In this document: one piece after another, positions 1 to 59,283 of the stretch | Layout: every line of letters begins with the position of its first letter | How positions within the stretch are numbered: position 1 is the stretch's first letter | Assembly: GCA_035292685.1 (NCBI GenBank) | Contig: DATDPP010000040.1 | Span: 1,398 to 65,397, forward strand | DNA length: 64,000 nt | Origin: Acidimicrobiia bacterium | Lineage (GTDB): Bacteria; Actinomycetota; Acidimicrobiia; Spongiisociales; ZC4RG35 | Direction of reading: 5' to 3' | Translations under genes and position numbers: made by a program | Notes under the pieces: model-generated | The model's database searches: none | Told to the model about the DNA's origin: nothing | The model's input: only the letters and a program-made list of their open reading frames with translations

Positions 1-640
1 ACGGCCGAGGCCTTCGACGGGCGCTCACTGATTCACCTCGATCCGAAGATCGCTGCGATCGGTGACCGCTCTCCCCGTTTCCAGGGAGGTGGCAGGTCCG
101 AAGACCCGCCGGTCGGCAGGCCGCCCGACGATCCCGAAAGATCCCCGTTCGGTCTCCCGAACCACCCCGAGCATTCGGTTTCCCGATGCTCCGGGCACCC
201 GCACCGAGGGGATTCTTCCCGGATCGGCTTTCGCCGCTCCGTACCCACTGTCCGGGGTGCCTCAGGGTCACCCCTGTGGCGTTCGGGAAAAGTAGACCGT
301 GGCCATGGCCACCGCAAACCCAGGGGCGAATTGATTTTCGCGATCAGGTGTCCACTTTTCGCGGAGCGATCGCATGACCTCCGACCACGGGCGCGAGAAA
401 CCCCGAGGGAGCCTCGGCCGAAGCCTCAGCCCTCTCGGGGCTCTCGTACCACCCTGCCAGGAAAGCGGGCCCCCGGCCTGATGGCGATCCGGAAAAACCG
501 AAGTCTCTCCTTCCCCGGCTTGAAGTTTCCTCCATGTCGGTAGTCGGGAACGTAGGTAGTGCCTTGAGGAGCGTCAAGCGAGACGGCGGGTTTCTTTTCG
601 CGTCCTACCGGGTGATTTCGCGGTGCCCGAAAAGGCTCCG
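1..640 (-). ncRNA. Hairpin-rich non-coding region; candidate structured RNA of unknown identity (strand inferred from loop sequences)
   Basis: No protein-like ORF in any frame (only Arg/Pro-rich off-frame ORFs). At least 8 short stems: 39-52, 95-106, 130-143, 147-162, 169-191, 225-236, 254-274, 299-312. Read on the minus strand their loops are UUCG, UUCG, UUUCGG, GAGA, GAAA, GAAA. CCGAA (UUCGG on minus) occurs 7 times. Confidence 0.3.
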
Positions 641-642
641 CG

Positions 643-668
643 TTCCTGTCACCCGGGGTCCTTACACT
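643..668 (+). promoter_or_regulatory. Candidate damage-type promoter, site A: TTCCTGTC-N12-TACACT, 7 nt before ATG 676 (leaderless)
   Basis: TGTC at 647-650, 12-nt spacer, TANNNT -10 box at 663-668, then cgcctcc, then ATG. Same architecture as sites at 2783-2808, 57519-57544 and 59248-59273. Confidence 0.55.
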
Positions 669-675
669 CGCCTCC

Positions 676-1461
676 ATGACAGTCGAAGCACCCGACCGCC
701 AACTGACGACGCTCTCCCCCAGCCGGGCAGGTGACTTCAAGACATGTCCCCAATTGTTCAAGTTTCGGGCGATCGATCGCCTCCCCGAGCCCACTTCCGT
801 GTATCAGGCCAGGGGCACGACGGCCCATCTCGCCCTGCAGCGCCTCTTCGATCATCCGGCCCCGGAGCGCTCGCCCGATCTCCTCTACAACCTGTTCCGG
901 GAGGCGTGGACCGAATTGAGGGGCGACGAGGAGTTCGACGGGCTGTTCGAGGACACGGAAGCCGAGCGGACATGGGGTCTGGAGTCGATGGAGCTCCTCG
1001 CCAACTACTTCGGAGTGGAGGACCCAACCAGTTTCGACCCCGTCGACCGTGAGCTGGACATGCTCGAGGATCTCGACGGGATCGTGATTCGCGGCATCCT
1101 CGACAGGATGGACCGCGACCAGGATGGCCTTCTGGTCATCACCGACTACAAGACCGGATCGGCGCCCCCGGAGAGATACGCCCTACCTGCCTTCTTCGCC
1201 TTGAAGATCTATGCCCTGCTCATCAGAAGGCGGACCGGGGAGACTCCGAAGGAGGTCAGGCTGCTCTATCTGAACGGGCCCACCGAATACCGTCTCGAGG
1301 TAGACGACCGCCAACTCGACGCCATGGATGGTCAGCTGCGCGCGTTGTGGGCCGCGATCGAGCGAGCAATGACCTCGGGGCGGTATCCGACCAGGCCGAG
1401 CCGGTTGTGCGACTGGTGCTCGTTCAAGGAGATCTGCCCGGCCTTCGTGGAAGCCGTCTAA
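676..1461 (+). CDS. PD-(D/E)XK nuclease, Cas4/AddB-like with 4Fe-4S Cys ligands (RecB-family exonuclease)
   Basis: 261 aa. N-terminal Cys (KTCPQLF), core ITDYKTG, C-terminal CDWCSFKEIC (C-x2-C-x5-C). Confidence 0.8.
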   Translation: MTVEAPDRQLTTLSPSRAGDFKTCPQLFKFRAIDRLPEPTSVYQARGTTAHLALQRLFDHPAPERSPDLLYNLFREAWTELRGDEEFDGLFEDTEAERTWGLESMELLANYFGVEDPTSFDPVDRELDMLEDLDGIVIRGILDRMDRDQDGLLVITDYKTGSAPPERYALPAFFALKIYALLIRRRTGETPKEVRLLYLNGPTEYRLEVDDRQLDAMDGQLRALWAAIERAMTSGRYPTRPSRLCDWCSFKEICPAFVEAV

Positions 1462-2750
1462 GGAAAGATACCCCTCACCAGCTTGGCGTCCGCCACCTTG
1501 CGGATCCCTTTGATCAGGGCGGCGGTCCGTAGGTCCACATTCTCGCTGAGCGCGATGTTGTGCACGTCGCTGAAAGCCCGCGTCATGATCTCCCGGAGAC
1601 GGGCTACCACTTCGTTTTCCGTCCAGAAGTACTTCTGAACGTCCTGCACCCATTCGAAGTAGGAGACGGTGACCCCACCGGCGTTGGCGAGGATGTCGGG
1701 AACCATGAGCACCTCACGGGCCCGGAGCATGTCATCTGCCTCGATGGTCGTTGGGGCGTTGGCCCCCTCGAGGATGATCTTGGCCTGAATGTTGTCGGCG
1801 TTGTCGGCTCGGATCACGTTCTGGACCGCCGCCGGCACCAACACGTCGACAGGCAGGAAGAACAGCTCATCCCCATCGAGATGGTCGGCGTCCGGGTATC
1901 CCTCGAGAAACCGGTTCTCGTCGACCCAGTTCGTCAGCGTCTCGATCTTGAGCCCATCGGGGTTGTAGACAGCTCCGGAGATATCTGACACCGCCACGAC
2001 CCGGGCACCCATCTGATTGCCGGCTATCGCCGCATAGCGACCCACATTCCCGAAGCCGTGGATGGCGACCGTGGCATCCTTGGGGTCGAGCTCTCGAATC
2101 GCCGCCGCCTGGGGCAAGAGGAACATGATGCCCCGTCCGGTGGCCTCCCTCCGGGCGACACTCCCGCCGAGGGATGGTGGCTTGCCGGTGACCACTGCCG
2201 GCACGGAATGGCCGACGTGCTGGGAGTAGGTGTCCATCATCCATGCCATCACCTGCTCGTTGGTCCCGAGGTCGGGAGCAGGAATGTCGGTATCCGGGCC
2301 GATCAGATGGATGATCTCCATGGTGAATCGTCGGGTCACCCTTTGCAGCTCGGCCCGGGAGAGCTGCATCGGGTCGAGACGAACCCCGCCCTTGGCCCCT
2401 CCGAACGGCAGCCCCACGATCGAGCACTTCCAGGTCATCAGCATGGCAAGGGCAGCGACCTCGCCCAGGTCGACGTCGGGGGCGAAACGGATCCCGCCCT
2501 TGGTCGGCCCCATGGTGGTCAGATGCTGCACCCGATAGCCGAACAGCGTCTCCACTTCGGAGTAATTGTCATGCCGAAACGGGAAGCTGACGGTCGTGGA
2601 CTTCTGGGGGACCCGGAGCCTGTCCGCCACGTTGTCGTCGAGACCCATCAGCCGCGCCACCCGGTCGAACTGGCCGACCGCCTCGTGGTACATGGGTGAG
2701 TCGAATTCGTGACCGACGGCCTTCACCACCGGAGTGAGTGTCTTTGTCAT
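1458..2750 (-). CDS. gdh: Glutamate dehydrogenase (Glu/Leu/Phe/Val dehydrogenase family)
   Basis: Track ORF 1458..3473 trimmed to ATG 2750 (MTKTLTP), which has a GGGGG SD-like run just upstream. Motifs FGGAKGGVRLDP and GFGNVG. The N-terminal 241 aa of the track ORF are Arg/Gly/Pro junk. Confidence 0.9.
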   Translation of the reverse strand: MTKTLTPVVKAVGHEFDSPMYHEAVGQFDRVARLMGLDDNVADRLRVPQKSTTVSFPFRHDNYSEVETLFGYRVQHLTTMGPTKGGIRFAPDVDLGEVAALAMLMTWKCSIVGLPFGGAKGGVRLDPMQLSRAELQRVTRRFTMEIIHLIGPDTDIPAPDLGTNEQVMAWMMDTYSQHVGHSVPAVVTGKPPSLGGSVARREATGRGIMFLLPQAAAIRELDPKDATVAIHGFGNVGRYAAIAGNQMGARVVAVSDISGAVYNPDGLKIETLTNWVDENRFLEGYPDADHLDGDELFFLPVDVLVPAAVQNVIRADNADNIQAKIILEGANAPTTIEADDMLRAREVLMVPDILANAGGVTVSYFEWVQDVQKYFWTENEVVARLREIMTRAFSDVHNIALSENVDLRTAALIKGIRKVADAKLVRGIFP

Positions 2751-2782
2751 TCGAACCCCCATGCTATGAGGTCGGAGCGGGT

Positions 2783-2808
2783 TTCCTGTCACAGGCCACC
2801 CGTAGCGT
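2783..2808 (+). promoter_or_regulatory. Candidate damage-type promoter, site B: TTCCTGTC-N12-TAGCGT, 7 nt before ATG 2816
   Basis: TGTC at 2787-2790, 12-nt spacer acaggccacccg, TAGCGT at 2803-2808, ggtgccc, ATG 2816. CCTGTCACAGG is also an inverted repeat. Confidence 0.5.
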
Positions 2809-2815
2809 GGTGCCC

Positions 2816-2959
2816 ATGAGACAGTTGATGAAGGAAGAGCCCGCAGCCCTGAACCAGGAAGCCGACCCCTACTCGGACCCCGTCCTCTACCTGCGGGCCT
2901 TGGGCATCGAAGCGGAACTGATAGAAACCCGGGACACCGATCTCCCTTCCGCTGCCTGA
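2816..2959 (+). CDS. Small acidic hypothetical protein (47 aa), possible leaderless first gene of the adnAB unit
   Basis: MRQLMKEEPAALNQEADPYSDPVLYLRALGIEAELIETRDTDLPSAA. Mostly G/C third positions. The ATG sits exactly where the other three motif sites place their start codon. Ends 16 nt before the adnA GTG. Confidence 0.35.
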   Translation: MRQLMKEEPAALNQEADPYSDPVLYLRALGIEAELIETRDTDLPSAA

Positions 2960-2975
2960 TACCTACGATCGCCAG

Positions 2976-5939
2976 GTGACAGTCAGGGAGATCCGGGTCG
3001 ATCCCGGAGACTGGGATTCGGCGGTGTCCGACCCCGACGGCGCCCAGCTGATCGTCGCCGGTCCCGGGACCGGCAAGACCGAGTTCTTGATCCAGCGGGT
3101 GACTCACATCGTCAACAGCGGTCGGGCCCGCCGCGACCAGATCTCGCTTCTCACCTTCTCGCGGCGCGCCGCAGCCGACATGAGGCGACGGGTGGGAATC
3201 ACCCTCGGTGGGTCCGGAGTGCCCGTTGACGCCTCCACCTTCCATTCTCTGGCGCTCAGGTTGCTGGAGACAGGCAACGCAGGCGAGCGCCCGGTCCCCC
3301 TCACCCCACCGGAACAGGTGACCCTCGTGGCAGACCTTCTGGCAAAGGAGGACCCGAGCCAATGGCCCGTCACATACCGGGGCATCCTCAACACCAGGAT
3401 CTTCGCAGCGGAGATCGCCGACTTTCTCACCCGGTGCTCGGAGCGCCTCCTCTCCCCCTCCGATCTGGAGCAACGCGCCGAAGAGCGCGCCGATTGGCGA
3501 GGCATCCCCGGTCTGTTCCGTCGCTACCGGGAAGCTCTCGAGGCATTGCCGCGAACCGACTACGGCACTCTCCTCGTCTCGGCAGTGGAGATGCTGGGCA
3601 CCGCCCGGGGACAGGAGCTGGCAGCTGGGTTTCGCTACGTGATCGTCGACGAATACCAGGACACATCACCGGCCCAGGCCGAGTTTGCCGGGTTGCTCGC
3701 CATGAGTCACGGCAACCTCACCGTGGCCGGGGACCCCTATCAATCGATCTACTCGTTTCGTGGGGCTGAGTTGAGGAATATCGCCCAATTCGCCGACCGG
3801 CACCGCGAGCTGACCCGGATCGTGCTGACCCAAAGCCTCCGGGTTCCATCCGACATCATGGAAGCGGCCCTCCGGGTGGTGTCATCGGGTGAACTGCCGG
3901 GTTCGGCGGGGCCGGTGCAGCCTGCGGAGCACAAGGGCCGGGTCGAAGCCCACGTCTTCGACCAGGAAACGGCAGAGGCTGACTGGATCGCCCGTGAGGT
4001 GGAGCACGTGATCCGGGTCGAGGGAGTGAGCCCATCTGCGGTGGCGGTGTTGGTGCGCTCCAAGCGCGAGTTGATCAACGAGTTGAGCCGGGCCCTCGAA
4101 CGAAGGTCGGTTCCGCACGATTCCCCGGACTCGCGACTCGTCGATCATCCTGCGGTTCGGGTCTTCGACGACCTGGCCCGGGTCGCCGCGCTGGAAGGCG
4201 GCCATCGGCGGGCCACCCCTGGCGAGAGGGCCGACGCCGACCGGGCGATGCGTCGCCTCCTGCTCGGGCCTCTGGTAACCCTCGGGTTGGGTCAGGAGCG
4301 AGCGATGCTGAGGGAGCGTCGGAGGAGCGGAGCCTCCTGGGCCGAAGTCGTTGGCACCGAATTGCCCGAGCGGACCGACCTCGAGGAGTTGCTCGCCGAC
4401 CCTTCGTGGGCCGCGGCTATACCCGCTGCCGACGGTTTCTGGGAGGCATGGAACCGCTTGCAGGGCGTGGATCGGCTTGTCGCCGACCCCGATCGGCGAC
4501 TATGGCGTCTCGCCATCACCGCCTTCGCTCAGGTTCTCACCCGCCAGGCGGAACGGGACGAGAAGGTCACTTTGGCCCGCTTCTTCGAGATGGCCCAGGA
4601 CGAGGGGTTCGAATCCGAGCCTCTCCTGGCGTTCCGGCCTCAGGAAGACCAGGTCACGCTCACCACCCTGCATCAGTCGAAAGGGCTCGAATTCGATGTG
4701 GTCTTCATCGCCAATGCTGTGGAAGGTATTTTCCCCGACCTGCGACGGAGTCGTCGAATGCTGCGACCCGAGTTGCTGTCACCTGAGCGGACAACGGACG
4801 CCGCGGCCCAGCATCTGTTCCAGGTCCAGGAGGAGATGCGTCTCGCCTACACCGCAATGACCCGGGCTCGCTTGCGGGTTGTGTGGACCGCCACAGCCGC
4901 CGGGGTCGACCAGGGTGAGCACCGTCCTTCTCGATTCCTGGTCGCGGCATCGGGTGTCGACTCGGTCTCCGATCTCGGCCGCCCCGGCGACGACGAACGC
5001 CAACCGGTGACCGTCATCGAGGCCGAGGTGGCAATGCGCCGAACCCTGTTCGACCCCGAGCGAACGGCGGCCGATCGCCTGGCCGCCGCCCGGGTCCTCG
5101 GTTCTCCACCTGAGGTTTGGTGGGAGGCTTCGGCCTTCGCCGGCGTCAGAGAGCCCGGCCCCGACCAGCCGATCATCGGAGAGGATCTTCGGCTGTCGCC
5201 CAGCCAGGCCGACTCCTATGCCACCTGCCCCCGCCGCTACGCCCTCGAGCGGAGGCTTCGATTGGGCGACGCCGGATCGCCCTACGCCCAATTCGGCACC
5301 CTGTTCCATGCCGCCATGGAAGGCTCCGAGGCCGACGTCGTGGGCACCGGGAAGGCGCATGCCGATCTCGAGAACGCCCTGGGCCATTTGCGCCGGGTCT
5401 GGGACGGGGAAGCCGACTTCGGCACTCCGGAGTTGAACGCGGCGTGGTTGAGACATGCCGAGGCGGCGCTCACCAAGCTCTACACGCTATGGCCGAGCCC
5501 CGACGGACAGCCGATCGGGTTGGAGATGAAGGTCGAATCGGTGATCGACGACACCCCATGGATGGGCCTGGTCGATCGTCTCGAGCGGACACCCGTCGGT
5601 CTCAAAGTGGTCGACTACAAGACGTCCAAGAGCGCCGCCACCGTCGAGGAGGGCAACAGCTCGATCCAACTCGCCTTTTATGCCTCGGCTGTCGCCCGGT
5701 CCTACGGGGAGCCGGTGATCGGCGCCGAGATGTGGTATCCGAGGGTCGACACCAAGAAGGTCACCACCCGTTCCCTCGATCTCGATCATCTGACCGAGGT
5801 CGAGGCGACGATGGCGCAGGTCACGAGGTCCATCCGCTCCGAGCTCTGGGGGCCCAGAGTTGGCGACGGCTGCCGAAACTGTGGTTTCAAGAAGTCGTGC
5901 CCCGCCTGGCCGGAGGGTCAGGGAGCCTTCCTGCCATGA
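2976..5939 (+). CDS. adnA: AdnA-like helicase-nuclease subunit (UvrD/Rep SF1 motor plus C-terminal RecB-type Fe-S nuclease)
   Basis: 987 aa. Motifs GPGTGKT, VIVDEYQDTSP, TLHQSKGLEFD. C-terminal nuclease with CPRRY, VVDYKTS and CRNCGFKKSC. Confidence 0.85.
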   Translation: MTVREIRVDPGDWDSAVSDPDGAQLIVAGPGTGKTEFLIQRVTHIVNSGRARRDQISLLTFSRRAAADMRRRVGITLGGSGVPVDASTFHSLALRLLETGNAGERPVPLTPPEQVTLVADLLAKEDPSQWPVTYRGILNTRIFAAEIADFLTRCSERLLSPSDLEQRAEERADWRGIPGLFRRYREALEALPRTDYGTLLVSAVEMLGTARGQELAAGFRYVIVDEYQDTSPAQAEFAGLLAMSHGNLTVAGDPYQSIYSFRGAELRNIAQFADRHRELTRIVLTQSLRVPSDIMEAALRVVSSGELPGSAGPVQPAEHKGRVEAHVFDQETAEADWIAREVEHVIRVEGVSPSAVAVLVRSKRELINELSRALERRSVPHDSPDSRLVDHPAVRVFDDLARVAALEGGHRRATPGERADADRAMRRLLLGPLVTLGLGQERAMLRERRRSGASWAEVVGTELPERTDLEELLADPSWAAAIPAADGFWEAWNRLQGVDRLVADPDRRLWRLAITAFAQVLTRQAERDEKVTLARFFEMAQDEGFESEPLLAFRPQEDQVTLTTLHQSKGLEFDVVFIANAVEGIFPDLRRSRRMLRPELLSPERTTDAAAQHLFQVQEEMRLAYTAMTRARLRVVWTATAAGVDQGEHRPSRFLVAASGVDSVSDLGRPGDDERQPVTVIEAEVAMRRTLFDPERTAADRLAAARVLGSPPEVWWEASAFAGVREPGPDQPIIGEDLRLSPSQADSYATCPRRYALERRLRLGDAGSPYAQFGTLFHAAMEGSEADVVGTGKAHADLENALGHLRRVWDGEADFGTPELNAAWLRHAEAALTKLYTLWPSPDGQPIGLEMKVESVIDDTPWMGLVDRLERTPVGLKVVDYKTSKSAATVEEGNSSIQLAFYASAVARSYGEPVIGAEMWYPRVDTKKVTTRSLDLDHLTEVEATMAQVTRSIRSELWGPRVGDGCRNCGFKKSCPAWPEGQGAFLP

Positions 5940-8900
5940 GATCCCTCATTCCGAGCCCCGAACAAGCCGAAATCCTGTCACTCGGTCCCGACTCCATTCG
6001 GATCCGGGCCGGCGCCGGGACCGGCAAGACCACCACCGTGGCGATGGTCATCTCCAACCTCATCACCAACCACTACGTCGACCCCGAGCGCATCCTGGGT
6101 ATCACGTTCACCAACAAGGCGGCGTCCGAGTTGGCCGATCGAGTCCGTTCGACCATTACCGGGATCGTCGACGAAGGGCGTCAGATCGAGGTCCACACCT
6201 ATCACGGTTTCGCAGCCCAGGTCCTCTTCGAGTTCGGGGCCCTGGTCGGTGTCGACAATCGGGTCAAGGTGATAACTCCCACCTTCTCGCGACAGATCCT
6301 GGCCGAGACCTTTGATCACACCACCTACCAACACCTCGACATCACCAATCGGATGACTCTCGACAGGATCCGGGGCCTCGGCGACCGTCTCGGGGATCAC
6401 CTCCTCGAGCCCGGGGACCTGCTCGGCCAGGAGCACCCCGATGACGAGACATGGGACAACCGCAACGAAATGTTGCAGACCCTGCTCCGGTACAGCGAGG
6501 ACAAGCGACGGCTCGGTGTTGTCGACTACGCCGACCTGGTGACCCTTTCGACGAGGATCTTCCGCACCCATCCCGGGCTCGCCGGCGAGATACGGGACCG
6601 ATATCAGGTGGTGGTGCTCGACGAGTACCAGGACACCAATCCGGGACAGAGGGTGTTGCTCACCACGATATTTGGTGAGGGCTTCCCGGTGATCGCGGTG
6701 GGAGACGAAGACCAGACGATCTATGAGTGGCGAGGGGCGTCGTCCGAGAACTTCGAGCTGTTCCCGTTGCACTTCCGGGCCGCCGGCGGGGGCCCGCCCC
6801 AGGACCGGAGCTTGACTCTCAACCGGAGATCTTCACAAACAATCCTCGATGTGGCCAATGAGATCCGGCGCAAGGCGAACCCGGCTGCCGAGTTGCTCTT
6901 GACCAGCGACCCGGAAAAGGAAGGCCAGGTGATCACGTACTGGGCAGGAGACGCGCTGGCCGAGGCCGATTGGATCGCACGTCGCTTCGAGGAGCTCCAC
7001 GACGACGGTGTGCCGTTTTCGGAGATGGCGGTCCTCTTCCGCAAGAACAAGGACTTTGCGGTGGTGGTCGACGCCATGGCCAGAAATGGCATCCCCGTGG
7101 AGGTGGCCAACGTGGGCGGGCTGTTGTCGGTGCCCGAGGTTGCGGAGCTCCGATCGTGGCTCACAGTCATCGAGAGACCGGAGAACTCAGCCGCCCTGGT
7201 GGAGATCCTCTTCGGTTCCCGTTATCGACTCGGGCTGGCCGACATCGCACCGTTGAGCCTCTGGGTGTCGGCCGCCGAGCCGGTGCGGGATCGGGAAGAG
7301 GAAAACCCGATCACCCTTCTCGAGGCAATCGAGGACATCGACCGGATCACAGGGATTCGTGACGATGCGCGCTCCGCCCTCAGGCATTTTCTCGGGTTGT
7401 ATCGAACGGTTCTCACCGAGAGTCAGGGGATGAGCCTGGTCGAAACCTGCCGTCTCATACTCGATCGGACCCGGGCCTGGCAGGACATCGAGGCGCTCCC
7501 CGGCGCCACCAGGCTGACCGCCCGTCTCAACCTCCATCGCCTCCTCGACCTGGCCGAGGATTGGAGCCCGCTGATCGGTCGTCCCTCGTTGGAGGCCTTC
7601 CTCGACTATCTGGGCGCCATGGAGGACGAGCCCGCCGAGGAGCTCGACTCCGCCCATCTATCGGGCGAGGACGCGGTGACACTGGTGACCGTTCATCGGG
7701 CCAAGGGCCTGGAATGGGACGTGGTCGCCATCCCGGCGGTGACCGACCAGAACTTCCCGAGCCGGGCCCGTCAACATCCCGACCCGGATCGATTCGCCGA
7801 GTATCTCCCGGTCCAAAACCGAATCGACACCGCCCTCGCCGACATGCCCGATGACGAGGCGGCGCGGCAGGAATACTTGAAGGCGAGAAATGACATTCAG
7901 GAATGGCGAACGGCATATGTGGCAGCCACCCGTGCCCGGTCGCTGCTCATGGTGACGGGAGCCTATTGGTACGGCCTGCCCGAGCCCACCATCAAAGCCA
8001 AGAAGCCATCGCCGCTCTTCGAGCTCGTCGAGTCACACCCCGCCACCCACATCGCAGGGCATGAGGTCGAGCCGGCGCGACCGGCTCTTCTGCGGCGGGC
8101 GCCGGATGCAGCGACACCCGACCCTGTGTTCGAGCAGGGTTGGGACGGAGGGCTCCGGCTGGCGATGTCGGACCACGAGGCGATGAGCCGACGCGCCAGC
8201 GAGCTGGGGGCAGGGTCGGAGTTCGACCAGAGAGTTGACGAGTTGGTCGGACGCCTGTTCGAGCTGGCGGCAACGGAGCAGATCCCCCAGGCTCCCCAGG
8301 ATCAAAGGACAGTCTCGGTGACAGGCCTCGTCACCTACGCCCAATGCCCGAAGCGGTTCTACTGGTCGGCGGTCGACCCTCTGCCTCGAGGGAGGAGCCC
8401 TTCCGCCGTGGCCGGGACCGAGCTCCACCGCCGGATCGAACTGCACCAACGAGGGCAGGTGCCCTTCGAACAGTTCTCCGAGGATCTCTACGACGTGCCC
8501 GACGAGGCGGCAGGTGATGGTGGCTTCAACGCATTTCGCGACTCCAGATTTGCCGAGCGCCGGGCCGCATTGGTTGAAGCGCCGTTCGAGCTCCTCGCTG
8601 GTGACGGCTATCGGGTCCGCGGGCGGATCGATGCGGTCTACGTCGACGGACGCCACTGGGAGGTCGTCGACTTCAAGAGCGGGAGACCCAGCACCGACCC
8701 CTCCCGGATCGTCCAACTCCAGTCCTACGCCATGGCGGCCACCGACATCGACTTCGGGCATCCAGCCCCCGAGGAGCTGGATGCCACGTTCGCCTACCTC
8801 GGTGGTGGCCTGGTCGAGGACACCTATCGGGCCGACGCCGCCTGGATCGAAGAGGCGAGGTCGGACATCACCACCCTCATCCAATCGATCGATGACAAAG

Positions 8901-8986
8901 TCTTCATCGAGACTCCGGGCGACTGGTGCCACACCTGTGACTTCCTGAGGTTCTGCGGGCCGGGTAAGGCTTGGCTCGCTGAATGA
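5936..8986 (+). CDS. adnB: AdnB-like helicase-nuclease subunit
   Basis: Track ORF 5117..8986 trimmed to ATG 5936 (ATGA overlap with adnA stop; MRSLIPSPEQ). Motifs GAGTGKT, VVLDEYQDTNP, TVHRAKGLEWD. C-terminal CPKRF, VVDFKSG, CHTCDFLRFC. Confidence 0.85.
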   Translation: MRSLIPSPEQAEILSLGPDSIRIRAGAGTGKTTTVAMVISNLITNHYVDPERILGITFTNKAASELADRVRSTITGIVDEGRQIEVHTYHGFAAQVLFEFGALVGVDNRVKVITPTFSRQILAETFDHTTYQHLDITNRMTLDRIRGLGDRLGDHLLEPGDLLGQEHPDDETWDNRNEMLQTLLRYSEDKRRLGVVDYADLVTLSTRIFRTHPGLAGEIRDRYQVVVLDEYQDTNPGQRVLLTTIFGEGFPVIAVGDEDQTIYEWRGASSENFELFPLHFRAAGGGPPQDRSLTLNRRSSQTILDVANEIRRKANPAAELLLTSDPEKEGQVITYWAGDALAEADWIARRFEELHDDGVPFSEMAVLFRKNKDFAVVVDAMARNGIPVEVANVGGLLSVPEVAELRSWLTVIERPENSAALVEILFGSRYRLGLADIAPLSLWVSAAEPVRDREEENPITLLEAIEDIDRITGIRDDARSALRHFLGLYRTVLTESQGMSLVETCRLILDRTRAWQDIEALPGATRLTARLNLHRLLDLAEDWSPLIGRPSLEAFLDYLGAMEDEPAEELDSAHLSGEDAVTLVTVHRAKGLEWDVVAIPAVTDQNFPSRARQHPDPDRFAEYLPVQNRIDTALADMPDDEAARQEYLKARNDIQEWRTAYVAATRARSLLMVTGAYWYGLPEPTIKAKKPSPLFELVESHPATHIAGHEVEPARPALLRRAPDAATPDPVFEQGWDGGLRLAMSDHEAMSRRASELGAGSEFDQRVDELVGRLFELAATEQIPQAPQDQRTVSVTGLVTYAQCPKRFYWSAVDPLPRGRSPSAVAGTELHRRIELHQRGQVPFEQFSEDLYDVPDEAAGDGGFNAFRDSRFAERRAALVEAPFELLAGDGYRVRGRIDAVYVDGRHWEVVDFKSGRPSTDPSRIVQLQSYAMAATDIDFGHPAPEELDATFAYLGGGLVEDTYRADAAWIEEARSDITTLIQSIDDKVFIETPGDWCHTCDFLRFCGPGKAWLAE

Positions 8987-9585
8987 CCGTCGTTGCAGCC
9001 GCCCTGGCGGGCTATCTGATCGGCTCGCTGCCCACCGCCAACACCCTCGCCGGGCTGTGGGGGGTGAACCTTCGCACCTCGGGGTCGGGCAACCCGGGGG
9101 CCAACAACGCCCGCCGCCTGGCTGGGCTCACCCCCTTCTTCTTGATCTTGGGCGTGGAGATGGGAAAGGGGGTGCTCGCCGTGCTTGTCGGCCATTCACT
9201 CGCCGGAGACCTGGGAGCGGTGACCGCCGGGCTGGGGGCCGCGGCGGGCAACGTATACAACGTCTGGTATTGGTTTGGGGGCGGTAAAGGCCTGGCAATC
9301 ACCCTTGGGATCCTCCTGGCCGCATGGCCCACCTTCGTCCCCTTCGGATTGTTGATCATCGGCGTGTCCGCCGCAGTCACCCGATCTTCGGGCATCGGGG
9401 CCCTGGTTGCCCTGGCCGGCCTGTTCCTGGGGGCTGTCATATGGGCGTGGGCAGGGCTCGACACGGGCTGGGGAGTCGAGGATGTGACCACATTGTTGGT
9501 GCTCGGCATCGGAATCCCTCTGGTCTTATGGCAGCGGCATTGGGCGGACGCCAAGAAACACCTCAGAGCACCCGTCCCCCTCTGA
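8983..9585 (+). CDS. plsY: Glycerol-3-phosphate acyltransferase PlsY
   Basis: 200 aa, multi-TM, GSGNPGANN motif. ATGA overlap with adnB stop. Confidence 0.85.
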   Translation: MTVVAAALAGYLIGSLPTANTLAGLWGVNLRTSGSGNPGANNARRLAGLTPFFLILGVEMGKGVLAVLVGHSLAGDLGAVTAGLGAAAGNVYNVWYWFGGGKGLAITLGILLAAWPTFVPFGLLIIGVSAAVTRSSGIGALVALAGLFLGAVIWAWAGLDTGWGVEDVTTLLVLGIGIPLVLWQRHWADAKKHLRAPVPL

Positions 9586-10018: not shown

Positions 10019-10053
10019 GAAGCCCGATTGTGGCAGCCAAATAGAGTGGGGCC

Positions 10054-52181: not shown

Positions 52182-53153
52182 GTGACCGCGCCCCCGGTGT
52201 TCTTGTTGGGGAGGACAAACTTGGCCAATCAGATCCTGACAACCTCCCACGGAACCAACCGTGAGGCTTTCAGTCCCAAGGATTGGGGCCTGTTCCTCAG
52301 TGTGTCGGCCATCTGGGGATCGTCGTTCTTGTTCATGACGATTGGGCTCGATGCGTTCCACCCCGGTTTGGTCACCTGGTTGCGGCTGGGCTTCGGGGCT
52401 GCGTTCATAGCCATGCTCCCCCGCGCCCGGCAATCGAAGATCCCCCGCCGCGAGTGGCGTCGAATTGGGGTGCTCGGGCTGATCTGGCTCGCCATCCCGT
52501 TCACGATCTTCCCGATTGCCCTGCAATGGGTCGACTCGTCGGTGACAGGGATGCTCAACGGCGCCACCCCTATCTTCACCGCGGTGATTGCCTCGATCCT
52601 CCTCTGGCATCTCCCCGGGCGTTTTCAGATGATCGGCCTGGTGGTCGGTTTCACCGGGATCGTTGCCATCGCCCTCCCCTCGGCCGGGGAGGGCTCAACG
52701 GCGGCGCTCGGAGTGGTGTTGATAGTGGTGGCCACGATTTGCTACGCATTCGCCACCAACATCGTCGCCCCGCTGCAGCAGAAGTACGGATCGCTTCCGG
52801 TGATGGCACGGGTGCAATGGGTGGCCGTCGCTTTGGTCACGCCCTACGGGATCTACGGGCTGACCCGGTCCGAATTCGCCTGGCCTTCCCTGTTTGCGAT
52901 GTTGGCGGTCGGAGTCCTGGGCACCGGCGTCGCCTTGGTGCTGATGGGGTCTCTGGTGGGGAGTGTCGGCCCGACCCGCGCCACCTTCGTCACCTATGTC
53001 TACCCGGTGGTCGCCTTGGCCCTGGGGGTGGTTTTCAGGGACGAGGTGGTTGCGCCGATCGCCATCGCCGGCATCCCCCTGGTCATCGCAGGGGCGGTTA
53101 TCGCCTCCCGCAGCGAGGTCGCCTTCAGGCCGCTGCCAGCCGAAGCGCTCTGA
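52182..53153 (+). CDS. EamA/DMT family transporter
   Basis: 323 aa, 10 TM, duplicated EamA halves. Confidence 0.75.
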   Translation: MTAPPVFLLGRTNLANQILTTSHGTNREAFSPKDWGLFLSVSAIWGSSFLFMTIGLDAFHPGLVTWLRLGFGAAFIAMLPRARQSKIPRREWRRIGVLGLIWLAIPFTIFPIALQWVDSSVTGMLNGATPIFTAVIASILLWHLPGRFQMIGLVVGFTGIVAIALPSAGEGSTAALGVVLIVVATICYAFATNIVAPLQQKYGSLPVMARVQWVAVALVTPYGIYGLTRSEFAWPSLFAMLAVGVLGTGVALVLMGSLVGSVGPTRATFVTYVYPVVALALGVVFRDEVVAPIAIAGIPLVIAGAVIASRSEVAFRPLPAEAL

Positions 53154-54027
53154 TCACGAGATCGCGGTCCCCAAGTCGTCGCCGGAGCTCCCGCTCCAGA
53201 CCACCGATCGGGTAGAGGTTCTGGGGGGCCCGCGGATCCTTGTGTCTCGCCGAGGCGTATCGAGGCAACGTGGCCGACACCAGATGGGCCATTCGGGCGG
53301 CGTCCGCCACATTCATGTCCGCCTTCACCTCACAGCGGACCAGGCCTCCGGCGGGACCAGCGCCGTTGGCCAGACGCAGATACCACGAGAAGCGGCTCCA
53401 GGAGGTAGTGGTGAGGAACAGCGGGGTGCGGTAACCGACCGGAAGCGTCCCCAGGGTTGCCCTGAGCTCGTCCTGAAGGTATTGCACATGCTGGGTCTTG
53501 ACGTATCCGACGGCTCCCTCGAGGTGACGACGATGGGAAAGCGGGCCGTCGACTACCACCAAGGCGGCGTCGCCATGATCGGCTGCCACCTCGCCCTCGA
53601 GGTCGCCCATCCGCTCCTGGATGCCCAACCAGAGCTCCTCGGGAGTCGAGCCCTTGGTGCTCATCACCTCATAGCGCCCAACCTTGGTGTCGACCGATTC
53701 GGCCGGGCCCGAGGTGAAGATCCCCCGGCGGACACTGGAAGCAACCACCCTGGCGCCACCGTTGCAACGAACGGCGCCGGCCGCGAAGGTAGCCGCCAGG
53801 CCGAACCCGGGAAAGAGGCCCTCCCGGTCGATCCAGAGGTTGGCGTCGACCCTTCGCACCCCGTCAACGAACAGGATGTCCTCGGCCGGGGCGCATTCCG
53901 GCAACAACGGGCGCCATTGGTCCGGGCTGACCTCGACCGACGGGTCCACCTTGTCGGTGGAATCGGCCAGATCGGCGTCGGAGGGGGCTCCGTAATCCGG
54001 ATCCCAGGCCTCGACCGTGAACCTCAC
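53125..54027 (-). CDS. NurA-like nuclease (tentative)
   Basis: 300 aa. GTGA overlap with the sbcC stop. DG-containing strands ILFVDGVRRVD and ALVVVDGPLS resemble NurA motifs. It occupies the nurA position of the archaeal herA-mre11-rad50-nurA operon. Confidence 0.5.
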   Translation of the reverse strand: MRFTVEAWDPDYGAPSDADLADSTDKVDPSVEVSPDQWRPLLPECAPAEDILFVDGVRRVDANLWIDREGLFPGFGLAATFAAGAVRCNGGARVVASSVRRGIFTSGPAESVDTKVGRYEVMSTKGSTPEELWLGIQERMGDLEGEVAADHGDAALVVVDGPLSHRRHLEGAVGYVKTQHVQYLQDELRATLGTLPVGYRTPLFLTTTSWSRFSWYLRLANGAGPAGGLVRCEVKADMNVADAARMAHLVSATLPRYASARHKDPRAPQNLYPIGGLERELRRRLGDRDLVIRALRLAAA

Positions 54028-56381
54028 GAGACCAGCTCCACCACCGAGCCGGTGGGCTCGCGCCGGACTTCTAGCCGGACCGTGGCCCGGGCCGCCAGCT
54101 CCTTGACATGAGTGACGATGCCGACCATGAGCCCACGGCCGGTCAACTCCTCGAGCACCGAAGCCACCGTGTCCAGAGACTCCTCGTCCAGGGTGCCGAA
54201 ACCTTCGTCCAGGAAGATCGCATCGAGACCGGAGGCGGCGCCTGCGGACAGGGTCTCCGCCAGGGAGAGGGCGAGAGCGAGGGCAACCAGGAAGGTCTCG
54301 CCCCCGGAGAGGGTCGATACCGATCGGGTCTCGTCGGCGTTGCGGTGGTCGACGATGGCGAACCCTCCGTCATCATCGGCCTCGAGCGCGAAGCCCCCAC
54401 CGGAGAGCTGGGCCAGGAGGTCGTTGGCCCCGGCGACCAGTTCGGTGATCGCACCGGCCATCAACCAGCGCTCGAAGCCGTCGGCACGGAGGTGGGCGGC
54501 AAGTGAATGAGCGACGGCGGCGCCGGCTTGCGACTCCTCGATGACCTTGGCCAGCTCGGCGGCGAGGGCGATGGTCTTCTCCATCTCATCAAACGCCTGC
54601 TTTGCTTGTTCTTGCTCCCGCGCCACGTGAACCGCGTAGGGGGCAACCGGCTCGATTCCGATGCCCTCCAGCTCGGCCACCAAACGCTCCTTTGCATTCA
54701 CTGCGCCGGTGACCGCGGCCCGGGCTTGGGCCTCCGCCTCCACGAGGCGGGCCCCGGTGTCGAGGCGGGCCTGGTCGATCCAACCCATCAGTTCCTTCCA
54801 CTGAACGAGGCTGTCGTCGCTCTCGGGTAACGGCGGCCGGAGATCGGCCACAGTCTCTCGGGCCGCCATCAAAGCGCGGCCAATCGATCGAAAGGCCTCG
54901 GCCGCCGTCTCCAACTCGCGGCGGGTCGCGGCGAGGAGCCCTTCGACTACTCCGAGCTCGTGCTGCCTCGCGACGACGAGAGCCTTTGCCGCTTCCACTG
55001 CGCTCATCTGGCGTTCCAGGGCCTCGGCCGGTAGGGCGGGGTCGAGGTCACCGAGAAGCGAGAGGCGTTGGGTCTCCAACTCCTTACGGGTGGCCTCGAT
55101 GCTGGCAGCCTCGGCACGAGCTTCCTCGAGACTGGTGCGAGCCGCGCTCACCCTCGTTGCGGCTGCCACTTCGCCTTCATCGAGCCGAATGAGGTCGGGA
55201 TCACGGTTGTCGTCGGGGAGAGCGGACACCGGGAGATCACAAACCGGGCATGGCATTCCCACCACCAGGGTGGCGCGCAAAGCATGGGCGGCGTGGGTCA
55301 CCCGTGCCGACTCCAGGTCTGAAGTCACCTGCTCGTGAATCGCGACGGCGGCCTCCAAGGCCTCCATCGCCGTTGCCACCCTGGATTCGACGACACCAAC
55401 ATCGTGTTCTTCGAGGCGGGCATCGAGCTCGGTGAGCCGCAGATAGGTCCTTGCATGTGACTCGAGCGATTCGATCGAAGGGAGGCCTTGCAACGCCACG
55501 TTCGCAGTTTCGAGCTCGGTCTCGGCTTGATCCCGGCGTCGCTCGAGCTCTTCGTGGGCATCACGGGCCCGGTTGATCGCCTCGTCGAGCATGTCGAGAT
55601 TGTCGGGAGGAGTGATCGAGTCGAGCCGCTTCAGGTCGCCTTCCAACCGCGACACCACGTCGGCGGCGGCTATGGCGGCCGCCTCCAGCCCGGCCAAGGT
55701 TGCTTCCAGCTCGTCGATCCTTTCGGCCATCTGCTCGAGTTGACCCGACCGGTCACGAGCAACGGCCAGGGATTCCTCGTCCGGGATCTCGAGCGGGGCC
55801 CTTCTCGCCTCGGCCTGCGCCGCTCTGTCCTCCGCCGTGGCTTCCCTCGTTCGCGCCAACCCCCGGATCTCTGAATAGATGTCGAGATCGAGGAGTTTGC
55901 GCAGGAGGGCCTGTCGATCGGACTTGGTGGCCGTCAGAAACCTTGCGAACTCACCTTGGGGCAAGACCACGGTCTTGGTGAAGTCCTCGTAACGCAGCCC
56001 GAGCAGCGCCTCGACTGCCTTGGTCACCTCGTCGGCACCTGAGGCCAGTGTGTCCGGGCCACGCTCGAGACGCGACTCGTTGGTGTTGGCGCCGGTCTTG
56101 GTGCGCAACACCTGTCTCGCCACGGTGTAGACCTGATCCCCCACGGCGAAGTCCACCGAGACCCGGGCCCGGTCGGCTCCGGCGGAGATCACCGGAGCCA
56201 CCTCGCGACCCCCAAGACGGGGGACCCGCCCGTAGAGGGCGAAGATCATGGCGTCGATCAGACTCGACTTCCCCGAGCCCGTTGGCCCGCTGAGCGAGAA
56301 GAAGTCGACCTCGGCGAAGCTGACGCTGCTGTGGGTTCGATAGGCCGAGAACCCTTCGAGGGTGATGCTGAGCGGTCTCAT
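54024..56381 (-). CDS. sbcC: SbcC/Rad50-family SMC-like ATPase
   Basis: 785 aa. Walker A GPTGSGKSS, coiled coils, zinc hook CPVC, signature LSGGE, Walker B IFLDEGFG. Confidence 0.9.
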   Translation of the reverse strand: MRPLSITLEGFSAYRTHSSVSFAEVDFFSLSGPTGSGKSSLIDAMIFALYGRVPRLGGREVAPVISAGADRARVSVDFAVGDQVYTVARQVLRTKTGANTNESRLERGPDTLASGADEVTKAVEALLGLRYEDFTKTVVLPQGEFARFLTATKSDRQALLRKLLDLDIYSEIRGLARTREATAEDRAAQAEARRAPLEIPDEESLAVARDRSGQLEQMAERIDELEATLAGLEAAAIAAADVVSRLEGDLKRLDSITPPDNLDMLDEAINRARDAHEELERRRDQAETELETANVALQGLPSIESLESHARTYLRLTELDARLEEHDVGVVESRVATAMEALEAAVAIHEQVTSDLESARVTHAAHALRATLVVGMPCPVCDLPVSALPDDNRDPDLIRLDEGEVAAATRVSAARTSLEEARAEAASIEATRKELETQRLSLLGDLDPALPAEALERQMSAVEAAKALVVARQHELGVVEGLLAATRRELETAAEAFRSIGRALMAARETVADLRPPLPESDDSLVQWKELMGWIDQARLDTGARLVEAEAQARAAVTGAVNAKERLVAELEGIGIEPVAPYAVHVAREQEQAKQAFDEMEKTIALAAELAKVIEESQAGAAVAHSLAAHLRADGFERWLMAGAITELVAGANDLLAQLSGGGFALEADDDGGFAIVDHRNADETRSVSTLSGGETFLVALALALSLAETLSAGAASGLDAIFLDEGFGTLDEESLDTVASVLEELTGRGLMVGIVTHVKELAARATVRLEVRREPTGSVVELVS

Positions 56382-57511
56382 GCCGTGGCCTCGTCGAGCA
56401 ACTCGGCGAAGAGGGCTTCGACCCTGTCATCGCCGACGTTGTTGTCCTCGAGGTACGTGTGAAAGGCGTCGGTTGGGGTGATGGCCCGTCGGCTCTCGAC
56501 GGCGGGCCTCCGCCCGGAGGTCGGCTGGAGGAGCGTCACGTCGACGGCACCCGGGATTCCGGCTCGCACCATGTCGGCCAGCCCGACCCGGGCCTTCTCG
56601 GTGAGCTCGACCTTGACATAGGCGTCACCAACATCATCGGCCCGAGCCAGCACCTGATCGACGGTTCCCCGGAGGGTGACCAGACCCCGGCCGGAGACGA
56701 GGGGGACCGTCGTCACCTTGGAGGGAAGCCCGGGTGCCGCTTCGACGAGGAGTGCCCCCTTGCGATCCTCCACCTCACCGAAGTCGAGTTGCAGAGGTGA
56801 CCCCGAGTACCAGACCGACCCACCATGAGGCACTTTCTGTTGGCGATGGAGGTGCCCCAGGGCCACATGAGAGAGATGACCGGGAAACACCGAAGCGGGC
56901 ACCGCGTACCCGAAGATGTGGGCCTGTCGCTCTCCCCCTCCCTCTTGGGCGCCATGCACCGTCAAATGGCCGACCAGGAGGTTGACCATGTCGGTGGTCA
57001 TATCGGCGGTGAGGGCGCCGATCAGCCGCTTGATCCGGTCCTCGTATACCCCGGCGTGCTGATCGGGGTCCGAGCCCATTATCTGCTCGGCCCGCACCAC
57101 GCCACGCTGGGAGACGAAGGGGAGCATGGCGACCTTGATCCCGAGGTCATCGTAGGAGACAACCCCACCCCGATCCGGCGGGAATGGTTGGGAGCAGGCG
57201 ATGATCCGGCCCATCTCGAGCAGCGGGGCCACCGCATCCAGCCGTGCCGGGTTGTCGTGGTTGCCTGCGATGACCAGCACCGGGGCCACCTCGGCCAGGT
57301 CGAGCAGGCCCCTCCAGGCGATTTGCTCGGCGACAGGGGTCGGTGCCGAGGTGTCGAACACGTCGCCGGCGACGACGACGAGCTGGACCTCGGCCCCAGC
57401 GGCGATCGTCACCAACTCGGCCAGAACCGAGCGGTGCTCCTCAGACCGGTCCCGGCCCCGGATCCGTTTCCCGACATGCCAATCGGAGGTGTGGAGGATC
57501 TTCACCGTCAC
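56378..57511 (-). CDS. sbcD: SbcD/Mre11-family nuclease
   Basis: HTSDWHVG, GDVFD, GNHD, GH phosphoesterase motifs. ATGA overlap with the sbcC start. Confidence 0.9.
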   Translation of the reverse strand: MTVKILHTSDWHVGKRIRGRDRSEEHRSVLAELVTIAAGAEVQLVVVAGDVFDTSAPTPVAEQIAWRGLLDLAEVAPVLVIAGNHDNPARLDAVAPLLEMGRIIACSQPFPPDRGGVVSYDDLGIKVAMLPFVSQRGVVRAEQIMGSDPDQHAGVYEDRIKRLIGALTADMTTDMVNLLVGHLTVHGAQEGGGERQAHIFGYAVPASVFPGHLSHVALGHLHRQQKVPHGGSVWYSGSPLQLDFGEVEDRKGALLVEAAPGLPSKVTTVPLVSGRGLVTLRGTVDQVLARADDVGDAYVKVELTEKARVGLADMVRAGIPGAVDVTLLQPTSGRRPAVESRRAITPTDAFHTYLEDNNVGDDRVEALFAELLDEATA

Positions 57512-57518
57512 GGGGTCG

Positions 57519-57544
57519 ATCGTAAAGAGCAGGTGGGACAGATT
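57519..57544 (-). promoter_or_regulatory. Candidate damage-type promoter, site D: AATCTGTC-N12-TACGAT, 7 nt before GTG 57511
   Basis: Minus strand: TGTC at 57540-57537, spacer ccacctgctctt, TACGAT at 57524-57519, cgacccc, GTG. Confidence 0.5.
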
Positions 57545-57568
57545 CGGGGAGCCGGCCGGAGAGGAGGG

Positions 57569-59239
57569 TTACAGACCCTCGAAAGGGTCCTCCGGGCCGG
57601 TGGAAGCCGGCACCGAAACGGCCTCGGACGCTCTGGTGGCCCAGGCGGGGAAGGGGAACTCCAAAACCAGAGGAACCGGCAGCTCGGGCTGGCTCAAGAT
57701 CATGGTTCCCGGCTTGAGGATGGTCGCCCGCTGCCTGTGCACCGAGGGAAGAAAGCCGTACTCCTCCCGTGCCGCCTCGGCCGCATCGAGACGCCCCACA
57801 ACCCGGATCGAGGAGTTTGCGATGATCCGGCGCTCCACCTCGGAGGCTGTCTGCTGGGCACCGATCAGGATGACTCCGAGGGAGCGGCCGCGCTCAGCCA
57901 CGTCGAGCAGGACTTCCTTTATCGGGCTGGTTCCCTCACGCGGGGCGTATTTGTTCAACTCGTCGAGCACCACCAGCAGGAGCTCGTCGGACTGGCCGGC
58001 CCGCTCCTTGTCGTCGAACGCTCGCTTCAAGGTCACACCCACCACGAAGCGCTTCGCCCGATCGTTGAGGTTGTGGAGGTCGACCACCGTCACCTGATTG
58101 GGGTCGAGCCTTATCTTGTGACGCTCCGGGTCAGGGACATCGGCCCGGATCATGCGCTCCAGGTGGCGGACCGAGGCCTGCAATCTCCGGACAAAGGCGT
58201 TGATGGTGCCGAGGCCGATGGCAGGGCCCGCCCAGAGAAACCGATGCTCCTCGGATTGGACCCGGTCGGTGACCAGATCGACGAACTCGCGAAAGGTGCG
58301 CACTTTGACGCCGTCGACCACCGCGGCCCCGGTTTCCGTGGCCTCGGCATGGCGCAACTGGGCCATCACGTTGTAGACAACGGTCGTGTACTGGGCACGG
58401 TCGTCCTCCGCGTCGGCAAACAGGAACGGGAGAAGGTCGTCCACACAGAACTCGTGAAGAGTCCAGAAGAAAGACGTCACATCGGACCGGGAAGCGACGT
58501 CGGCGGTTGCCCTCTGATCGTCGATTCGAGGCGGGGCGAAGATCCCCACCGAGTCGAAGGGAGTGGAGGGGAGGCCGAGATGGGTGTAGCCGAGACGGTG
58601 CTCCTCATCGAGGCGGGTATTGACCCGGTCGAGATGGAGCAGATCCTCGCCCTTGACGTTGAAGATGAGGGCCTTGGTGTTGACCACGGCTTTGCCCAGG
58701 ACCCCCGAGGTGAACAGGGAGTGGAGAAGGAAGGTTGCGTAGCTCGTCTTGGTCGCCACCCCGGAGATCCCTGAGATGTTGACGTGGGCTCCCCGTTCGC
58801 CGTTGATGAACTCGAAGTTCACCCACAGCGGCTCCTTGTTGCGCGCCAGCCCCACCGGGAATTTCTGCTCCATCTGGTCGAAGAAGAGAGCCTGATCCCG
58901 CTCGTCCCCGACGGCGATCCGCACCTCCTGGCCGGGAAGCGGCGGGACGAACACCTCGGGCTCGAAGCGGGTGGTCGTGACCTGGGCGGTTTCGACCACC
59001 TCGGCGGGGAGGATCCCGTCCTCTATGAGAAACACGTCGGAGTCGAACCTGGCCCCCTCGTGCCGGGCAACCACCTGGCCAACCATCCCGAACATTCGAA
59101 CCATCTCACCGGTTGGGAGCACCCGCTCGAGGGCCACGACGTCGTCGAGTTGGACGTACTGCCCCTCCTCGATTCCGATCCAGAACTCGAGTGGGGTGGC
59201 GTCTTTGGTCCCGAGGACCCGGCCGACCATGTCTTCCAT
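57569..59239 (-). CDS. HerA-like FtsK/HerA-superfamily ATPase (HAS-barrel plus P-loop)
   Basis: 556 aa. N-terminal HAS-barrel-like GRVLGTKDATPLEFWI...VQLDDVV. P-loop GISGVATKTS. Walker B LLLVVLDELNKY. Confidence 0.7.
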   Translation of the reverse strand: MEDMVGRVLGTKDATPLEFWIGIEEGQYVQLDDVVALERVLPTGEMVRMFGMVGQVVARHEGARFDSDVFLIEDGILPAEVVETAQVTTTRFEPEVFVPPLPGQEVRIAVGDERDQALFFDQMEQKFPVGLARNKEPLWVNFEFINGERGAHVNISGISGVATKTSYATFLLHSLFTSGVLGKAVVNTKALIFNVKGEDLLHLDRVNTRLDEEHRLGYTHLGLPSTPFDSVGIFAPPRIDDQRATADVASRSDVTSFFWTLHEFCVDDLLPFLFADAEDDRAQYTTVVYNVMAQLRHAEATETGAAVVDGVKVRTFREFVDLVTDRVQSEEHRFLWAGPAIGLGTINAFVRRLQASVRHLERMIRADVPDPERHKIRLDPNQVTVVDLHNLNDRAKRFVVGVTLKRAFDDKERAGQSDELLLVVLDELNKYAPREGTSPIKEVLLDVAERGRSLGVILIGAQQTASEVERRIIANSSIRVVGRLDAAEAAREEYGFLPSVHRQRATILKPGTMILSQPELPVPLVLEFPFPAWATRASEAVSVPASTGPEDPFEGL

Positions 59240-59247
59240 CCCAGGCG

Positions 59248-59273
59248 AGAGTAGACCCGCCCTGGGACAGGAA
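59248..59273 (-). promoter_or_regulatory. Candidate damage-type promoter, site C: TTCCTGTC-N12-TACTCT, 8 nt before ATG 59239
   Basis: Minus strand: TGTC at 59269-59266, spacer ccagggcgggtc, TACTCT at 59253-59248, cgcctggg, ATG. Confidence 0.5.
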
Positions 59274-59283
59274 TCGGTCTCCT

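Follow-up and report, generated by a model that had tools for sequence, protein, structure and literature searches.

A 64-kb stretch of DNA from an Acidimicrobiia bacterium (64,000 nucleotides (nt); assembly GCA_035292685.1, contig DATDPP010000040.1, positions 1,398 to 65,397; hereafter the window) carries four copies of a bipartite motif, TGTC-N12-TANNNT, just ahead of genes for the processing of DNA ends. We consider it very probable that these four elements (sites A to D) are hybrid promoters of the RecA-independent damage promoter (RecA-NDp)/PafBC class, in which a housekeeping -10 box is paired with TGTC in place of a -35 element, and that they control AdnAB, a RecB/Cas4-like nuclease and HerA/SbcCD/NurA. 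PafBC-type sigma adaptation is the preferred explanation because motif, geometry, target genes and phylum correspond; the host belongs to the phylum Actinomycetota (class Acidimicrobiia), as expected for this promoter class.

Four predicted promoters ahead of DNA-end-processing genes

Site A (643..668, plus strand) consists of TTCCTGTC-acccggggtcct-TACACT, followed after 7 nt by ATG676; its parts are TTCC (643-646), the -26 element TGTC (647-650), a 12-nt spacer and the -10 box TACACT (663-668). Site B (2783..2808, plus strand) reads TTCCTGTC-acaggccacccg-TAGCGT, that is TTCC-TGTC and a 12-nt spacer before the box, and lies 7 nt upstream of ATG2816. The other two sites are on the minus strand: site C (59248..59273, read 59273-59248) is TTCCTGTC-ccagggcgggtc-TACTCT, again with TTCC-TGTC and a 12-nt spacer and 8 nt from ATG59239, and site D (57519..57544, read 57544-57519) is AATCTGTC-ccacctgctctt-TACGAT, with AATC-TGTC, a 12-nt spacer and 7 nt to GTG57511. 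The sequences, coordinates and spacings given for these sites in an earlier, first-pass annotation of the window were re-read exactly as written. A position weight matrix derived from 223 distinct sites of related loci gave sites A, B, C and D scores of 25.8, 22.8, 23.9 and 30.5 bits (range 22.8-30.5), and no other position in the window exceeded 8.2 bits.

An exhaustive scan of both strands of the window for TGTC-N12-TANNNT returned exactly four matches, sites A to D, and no match when TGTC and TANNNT were set at spacings of N10, N11, N13 or N14. The string TTCCTGTC occurred three times in the window, at sites A, B and C. By raw count the motif was barely unusual (0.94 matches expected against four observed, and four reached in 3 of 100 shuffled versions of the window); placement, rather than count, is the telling feature, because all four sites end 7-8 nt before the starts of DNA-end-processing genes. 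Among ~57 gene starts in the window, taken from Pfam scans and from the genes called on ENA metagenome contigs that are identical to the window, 15 had a TANNNT ending 5-10 nt upstream, and TGTC stood 12 nt further up in four of these 15, again sites A to D. With a probability of TGTC of ~0.0033 per site, taken from base composition (GC content 64.8%), we estimate the probability of four in 15 at ~1.5e-7. The claim of the first-pass annotation that the motif is limited to four DNA-end-processing units therefore held, as none of the other starts among the ~57 had it. The remaining genes of the window are metabolic and transport genes plus one gene of the UDG (uracil-DNA glycosylase superfamily) family, none of them with the motif, and no further recombination or end-processing genes were found in the window.

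Looser forms of the motif were tried as a source of further sites in the window and rejected, as none added a site: relaxation to GTC-N12-TANNNT added one intragenic match, at 5504, and TGTC-N12-NANNNT gave 20 dispersed matches without a gene-start pattern. A canonical sigma-70 promoter was also rejected for sites A to D, where a consensus scan of positions 400-10100 and 53000-59400 found no sigma-70-type -35/-10 pair; being a plain pattern search, this test is weak.

The in vivo consensus published for PafBC, tGTCgg(N10)tA(N3)T, is equivalent to TGTC-N12-TANNNT; it combines a -26 element on the 5' side with the SigA -10 box on the 3' side and has no -35 element (PMC8635444). The spacing given in the first-pass annotation was thus correct. 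PafB reads the GTC triplet, which is near-invariant across actinobacteria (PMC8635444), and the motif in Mycobacterium tuberculosis tolerates TGTCGG, TGTCAG and TGTCAC (PMC8151990). PafBC candidates of M. tuberculosis with the motif 7 nt upstream include Rv2119 ("exonuclease RecB-like"), Rv3202c-Rv3201c (adnA-adnB), lhr and the 13E12 genes Rv1588c-Rv1587c; polA has a CGTC variant 8 nt upstream, recA has the motif 55 nt upstream, and Rv1277-Rv1278 has it at +42 of the annotated open reading frame (ORF) (PMC8151990, Table S7). Rv1277 is listed as the M. tuberculosis counterpart of SbcD (PMC2587704). The distances from motif to start codon in the window (7, 7, 8 and 7 nt) match the 7-8 nt of Rv2119, adnA, lhr, Rv1588c and polA. 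It had also been claimed that the mycobacterial regulon includes adnAB, which is borne out by the report that adnA depends exclusively on PafBC in both M. smegmatis and M. tuberculosis (PMC8682763).

Conservation of the motif in related loci

To place the sites in a wider context, we assembled nuclease loci from 80 other species (74-94% protein identity, 1.30 Mb), whose contig titles mostly name Acidimicrobiia, Acidimicrobiaceae or Actinomycetota metagenome-assembled genomes (MAGs), some with conflicting bin names. TGTC-N12-TANNNT lay directly upstream (~6-9 nt) of the nuclease start in 79 of the 80 species, while the 12-nt spacer varied freely. A footprint anchored on the start of the tblastn match, and so independent of the motif, had its peaks of information content over TGTC and over the T, A and T positions of TANNNT, with low values between.

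A scan of these 1.30 Mb for the motif gave 160 exact matches, 151 of which had a start codon 4-12 nt downstream, at exactly 7 nt in 126 of the 151. In ten dinucleotide-preserving shuffles there were 16-34 matches, with 2-8 followed by a start codon at that distance. When the proteins downstream of the motif were clustered, the nuclease came out in all 80 loci and the product of a small ORF (34-64 residues) in 63, besides a few others. A second set comprised 80 metagenomic herA loci, of which 77 were scored for the region upstream of herA and 73 for the herA-sbcD junction. The exact motif preceded herA in 56/77 loci, and a CGTC or TGTA variant with the same spacing was present in at least nine more. 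At the herA-sbcD junction it was found in 23/73 loci, all closer relatives; in many others sbcD abuts herA without a gap or is absent, and site D is therefore likely to be a younger, lineage-restricted promoter. Judged from these comparisons, the motif is under selection. Conservation at 79/80 nuclease starts, in 63 small-ORF loci and at 56/77 herA starts, together with a 7-nt start distance as in M. tuberculosis, lends support to the RecA-NDp/PafBC-type reading that had been put forward from the window itself.

The flanks of the motif were less well described by the first-pass annotation. A conserved TTCC prefix did not survive the wider comparison, in which the class-wide prefix was (A/T)(A/T)TC, with C right before TGTC in 78% of sites. 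The RGTG part had been called not conserved, which is true in that A-C-A is favoured after TGTC, but a purine occupies the R position in 85% of sites class-wide; sites C and D of the window have C there. As to a lineage-specific variant, the flank preference does differ, but the TGTCAC form is already known from M. tuberculosis (PMC8151990). Since TGTCAC-N10-TANNNT is already listed there, the form seen in the window amounts to a flank preference and not to a new motif.

In their titles, several MAGs among loci L012-L091 are called Acidobacteriota, Thermoanaerobaculia, Boseongicola or Kiloniellaceae, although the locus that they carry is clearly of the Acidimicrobiia type; these conflicting titles are probably binning or labelling errors.

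Genes downstream of sites A to D

The gene identities proposed in the first-pass annotation agreed with matches in Pfam, NCBIfam and the PDB. Site A precedes a free-standing nuclease of the PD-(D/E)XK (RecB/Cas4-like) type (676..1461, plus strand, 261 residues; Pfam PDDEXK_1, E=5e-36), whose nearest solved structures are AdnA nuclease domains (chain A of 6ppu, 7sjr, 6ppj and 9np6) and whose homologues carry the name RecB family exonuclease, close ones being assigned to an Acidimicrobiia bacterium. Downstream of site B, after the small ORF described below, lie genes for an AdnA-like helicase-nuclease subunit (2976..5939, plus strand, 987 residues; Pfam UvrD-helicase and PDDEXK_1, and M. smegmatis AdnA chain A in 6ppj and 7sjr) and an AdnB-like subunit (5936..8986, plus strand, 1016 residues; best PDB match M. 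smegmatis AdnB chain B, 6ppu_B, E=5e-74), which overlap by 4 nt. adnA has a TACGAT box of its own within the end of the small ORF (2955-2976, plus strand), 6 nt before GTG2976 and with no TGTC upstream, which could provide a second, damage-independent start for adnAB. The glycerol-3-phosphate acyltransferase gene plsY (8983-9585, plus strand) begins 4 nt before the adnB stop codon and may be co-transcribed with the predicted damage-induced adnAB unit.

On the minus strand, site C precedes herA (57569..59239, 556 residues from ATG59239), which had no Pfam match and matched HerA in PDB 7f6d_B (E=5.9e-145). It is followed by sbcD, encoding an Mre11-family nuclease (56378..57511, 377 residues; NCBIfam TIGR00619 sbcd, E=1e-45, and Pfam Metallophos), sbcC, encoding a Rad50-family ATPase (54024..56381, 785 residues; Pfam AAA_23, SMC_N and SbcC_Walker_B), and the nuclease gene nurA (53125..54027, 300 residues; Pfam NurA, E=1e-5, and PDB 7f6d_H NurA, E=3e-19). 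sbcD and sbcC overlap by 4 nt, as do sbcC and nurA, and site D lies inside the 57-nt gap between herA and sbcD, in which no terminator-like site was found. On account of these overlaps and of the lack of a terminator-like site between herA and sbcD, we regard site D as an internal promoter of a herA-sbcD-sbcC-nurA cluster. The four transcription units of the first-pass annotation are accordingly better described as four promoters, with the unit behind site D not fully separate from that of herA. Only 44 nt (59240-59283) separate herA from a divergent glycosyltransferase gene (MGS_GT, start 59284), and since site C fills most of this gap, the promoters of the two genes must overlap.

Gene callers place the start of herA at ATG59230, and the exact 553-residue product from that codon is on record; the exact product from ATG59239 is not on record in the database, where the called start differs. 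For the small ORF, database gene calls begin at ATG2828. We consider ATG59239 (herA) and ATG2816 (small ORF) the likely true starts rather than ATG59230 and ATG2828, because both fit the promoter geometry and because the loci of relatives likewise have a start codon 7-9 nt past the -10 box, which in herA relatives is the first ATG. The ACS product from GTG36442 is likewise not on record in the database, the called start again being different.

A conserved small ORF between site B and adnA

The small ORF at 2816..2959 (plus strand) encodes a microprotein of 47 residues and is predicted to be leaderless. The 64 aligned sequences vary at the N-terminus, share a core of the form F-x-DPV-x-YL-xxx-GIEAELV and end in LP-x-AA. 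Each of the invariant residues Pro, Leu and Gly is encoded by 4-5 synonymous codons, and the penultimate Ala by all four GCN codons. Because of this conservation across the alignment, combined with synonymous codon variation at invariant residues, the small ORF is a real gene under selection at the protein level. Searches of Pfam, NCBIfam and the PDB found no relatives. The SsrA-like -AA end may make the microprotein short-lived, and that it acts together with AdnAB is conjecture, based on where its gene lies.

Other genes behind the motif and other genes of the window

In related loci the motif also precedes genes for DUF222-HNH (13E12-type) endonucleases, a 373-residue macrodomain protein and a nuclease with SNase and lamin-tail domains (L065, L076, L082, L091, L096, L134, L135, L144, L145; L122/L124; L136). 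A Streptomyces macrodomain gene, SCO6735, has a RecA-NDp promoter (PMC5087735). At two DUF222 sites, in L048 (minus strand, near 8813) and L093 (6797-6840), the actinobacterial SOS box cGAACatatGTTCg follows right after the motif and overlaps the ATG. The combination of motif and SOS box in these two loci suggests dual control by PafBC and LexA, mirroring the dual control described for mycobacteria (PMC8223512). The reading frames downstream of the L048 site resemble a frameshifted DUF222 gene.

Within the window, the UDG-family gene (24638-25201, minus strand) stands amid unrelated genes and has neither the PafBC-type motif nor a TANNNT near its start.

Discussion

In sequence terms, sites A to D are a known promoter class in a lineage for which it had not been described, with herA, nurA and the gene for the 47-residue microprotein as new candidate members of the regulon. 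The nuclease, adnAB and sbcDC units are not new in kind, as Rv2119, adnAB and Rv1277-Rv1278 are already candidates in M. tuberculosis. PafBC and its promoter class have so far been characterised only in class Actinomycetes, namely in mycobacteria, Streptomyces, Corynebacterium and Arthrobacter, and the same architecture in Acidimicrobiia would push this LexA-independent damage response towards the base of the phylum. For specialists this is an extension of a known system and no surprise.

By analogy with mycobacteria, single-stranded DNA from damage sites would activate a heterodimer of the WYL-domain PafB/PafC type, which is marked by an HTH-WYL-WCX architecture, a recognition helix of the form FxRMFERDK and the helix arginines R46 and R50. 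Such an activator would insert between region 4 of sigma-A and the DNA, read the GTC triplet and bridge the TGTC element, ~26 nt upstream of the transcription start, with the result that the housekeeping RNA polymerase could fire at sites A to D, a mode of action termed sigma adaptation (PMC8635444; PMC11804915). With 7-8 nt between the end of the -10 box and the start codon, there is no space for a ribosome-binding site ahead of the codon; this geometry fits leaderless units at all four sites, whose transcripts are predicted to start at the start codon or right beside it. Damage would then jointly induce two machines for the resection of double-strand breaks (AdnAB, and HerA-NurA with SbcCD), the stand-alone RecB/Cas4-like nuclease and the small protein encoded ahead of adnA. 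We infer which regulator acts, that damage induces the genes, and where exactly transcription starts.

Several observations weigh against this reading. No pafB or pafC (WYL) genes were found among the genes of the window. A search of all ORFs in 2.4 Mb of Acidimicrobiia loci, by phmmer and a regular expression for the WYL pattern, found no PafB match, a weak negative as the loci sample two neighbourhoods. The PafB query, an M. tuberculosis sequence, matched PafB in PDB 7p5x (E=1e-138) and was 96% identical to the M. tuberculosis protein in the database. A search of 1.84 billion representatives returned at least 150 PafB-like proteins, listed without taxonomy, and when the clusters of ten of these were consulted, hardly any organism was named; a profile built from 60 divergent PafB representatives found only Actinomycetes-named or unnamed proteins among the best 120-150 matches listed, again a weak negative. 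Our literature search found no paper that pairs Acidimicrobiia with PafBC. The species sets compared in two PafBC papers, judged from the species names, are presumably all of class Actinomycetes. Finally, the Acidimicrobiia flanks, (A/T)(A/T)TC-TGTC-ACA, differ from the mycobacterial t-TGTC-(G/A)gtg, with C at the R position in sites C and D. By contrast, the pupylation locus is known in Acidimicrobiales (PMC3511204).

These observations could also mean that the conserved element is real and is read by a factor that is not a PafBC orthologue, such as a different activator from within or outside the WYL family, or a repressor that binds between -35 and -10. PafB and PafC were not found for Acidimicrobiia among the sequences searched, the flank preferences are unlike those of mycobacteria, and other WYL regulators of the damage response do exist: DriD of Caulobacter and SiwR of M. 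smegmatis are likewise SOS-independent activators of damage genes that sense single-stranded DNA. Their binding sites and promoter geometry presumably differ from those of sites A to D. We nevertheless hold a different factor to be unlikely, as sites A to D match PafBC in their GTC core, in how far this core lies from the -10 box, in how near the start codon follows and in the genes served, a binding site so near the -10 box is an unusual hallmark of PafBC sigma adaptation, and PafBC is stated to be present in almost every actinobacterial species (PMC8635444).

Promoters for an alternative sigma factor of the extracytoplasmic function (ECF) type, with TGTC in the upstream and TANNNT as the downstream element, would account for a motif that is bipartite, asymmetric and limited to a functional gene set. 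However, TANNNT is the ordinary housekeeping box and also stands at eleven unrelated gene starts of the window. The usual spacing between -35 and -10 elements is 16-18 nt, and the 12-nt gap is too short for such a pair. The counterpart motif in mycobacteria is served by SigA with PafBC (PMC8635444), and we regard an ECF-type promoter as improbable.

Chance, a by-product of base composition or the recent duplication of one promoter has hardly any claim left: the shuffles of the window that reached four matches speak for chance, but the location of all four sites 7-8 nt before repair-gene starts, the conservation across species and the shuffle controls exclude it, and duplication was rejected because the spacers of sites A to D are unrelated, with no sequence in common. 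Operators of the LexA-type SOS response are just as implausible, even though the downstream genes are repair genes and an SOS box adjoins the motif in L048 and L093, since the motif is not palindromic and no actinobacterial LexA box (GAAC-N4-GTTC) lies near sites A to D, the sole match in the window being at chance level and inside a gene, at 42433; an SOS box at the four sites was rejected on the same ground.

With PafBC-type promoters as the preferred interpretation, a wider proposal can be made, which we offer tentatively and would not expect to hold in full: that the microprotein is a new, damage-induced and Acidimicrobiia-specific partner or modulator of AdnAB, and that PafBC-type sigma adaptation predates the split between Acidimicrobiia and Actinomycetes and, in Acidimicrobiia, drives an archaeal-style HerA-Mre11-Rad50-NurA module. 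The role of bacterial HerA-NurA is poorly defined outside Deinococcus, and its wiring with AdnAB and SbcCD points to the resection of double-strand breaks. The analysis further flags a conserved microprotein gene that had escaped annotation and may act with AdnAB, and corrects two likely start-codon calls, those of herA and the small ORF.

Comparison with known systems

The SOS box bound by LexA (TCGAAC-N4-GTTCGA) also controls repair genes and is found together with the motif at some DUF222 genes of related loci, but it is a palindromic repressor site. Among archaea, the herA-mre11-rad50-nurA operon has a gene order identical to that of herA-sbcD(mre11)-sbcC(rad50)-nurA in the window. Unlike the archaeal operon, the cluster in the window is bacterial and has two promoters of the actinobacterial damage type, one of them internal. 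The HerA of PDB 7f6d, which we take to belong to the HerA-NurA complex of Deinococcus radiodurans, is very close to the HerA of the window.

The closest correspondence is with the RecA-NDp/PafBC-dependent promoters of mycobacteria and other Actinomycetes, reportedly treated by Gamulin in 2004 and by Muller et al. in 2018 and 2021. Neither herA nor nurA is among the M. tuberculosis genes that we looked up, and to our knowledge M. tuberculosis lacks both; nor does its adnA have a small ORF between promoter and gene, unlike adnA in the window. The nuclease at 676-1461 falls into the same annotation class as Rv2119, an orthology that rests on annotation and Pfam class only. The 13E12 genes carry the motif in M. 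tuberculosis as they do in related Acidimicrobiia loci. Overall, the known PafBC promoters differ from those of the window in that their host class is Actinomycetes and not Acidimicrobiia, and they have in common with them the TGTC core, the 12 nt to TANNNT, the lack of a -35 element, a directional arrangement and a position directly upstream of repair genes, as well as, judged from annotation and domains only, the same kinds of target: a RecB-like exonuclease, AdnAB and an SbcD-type pair.

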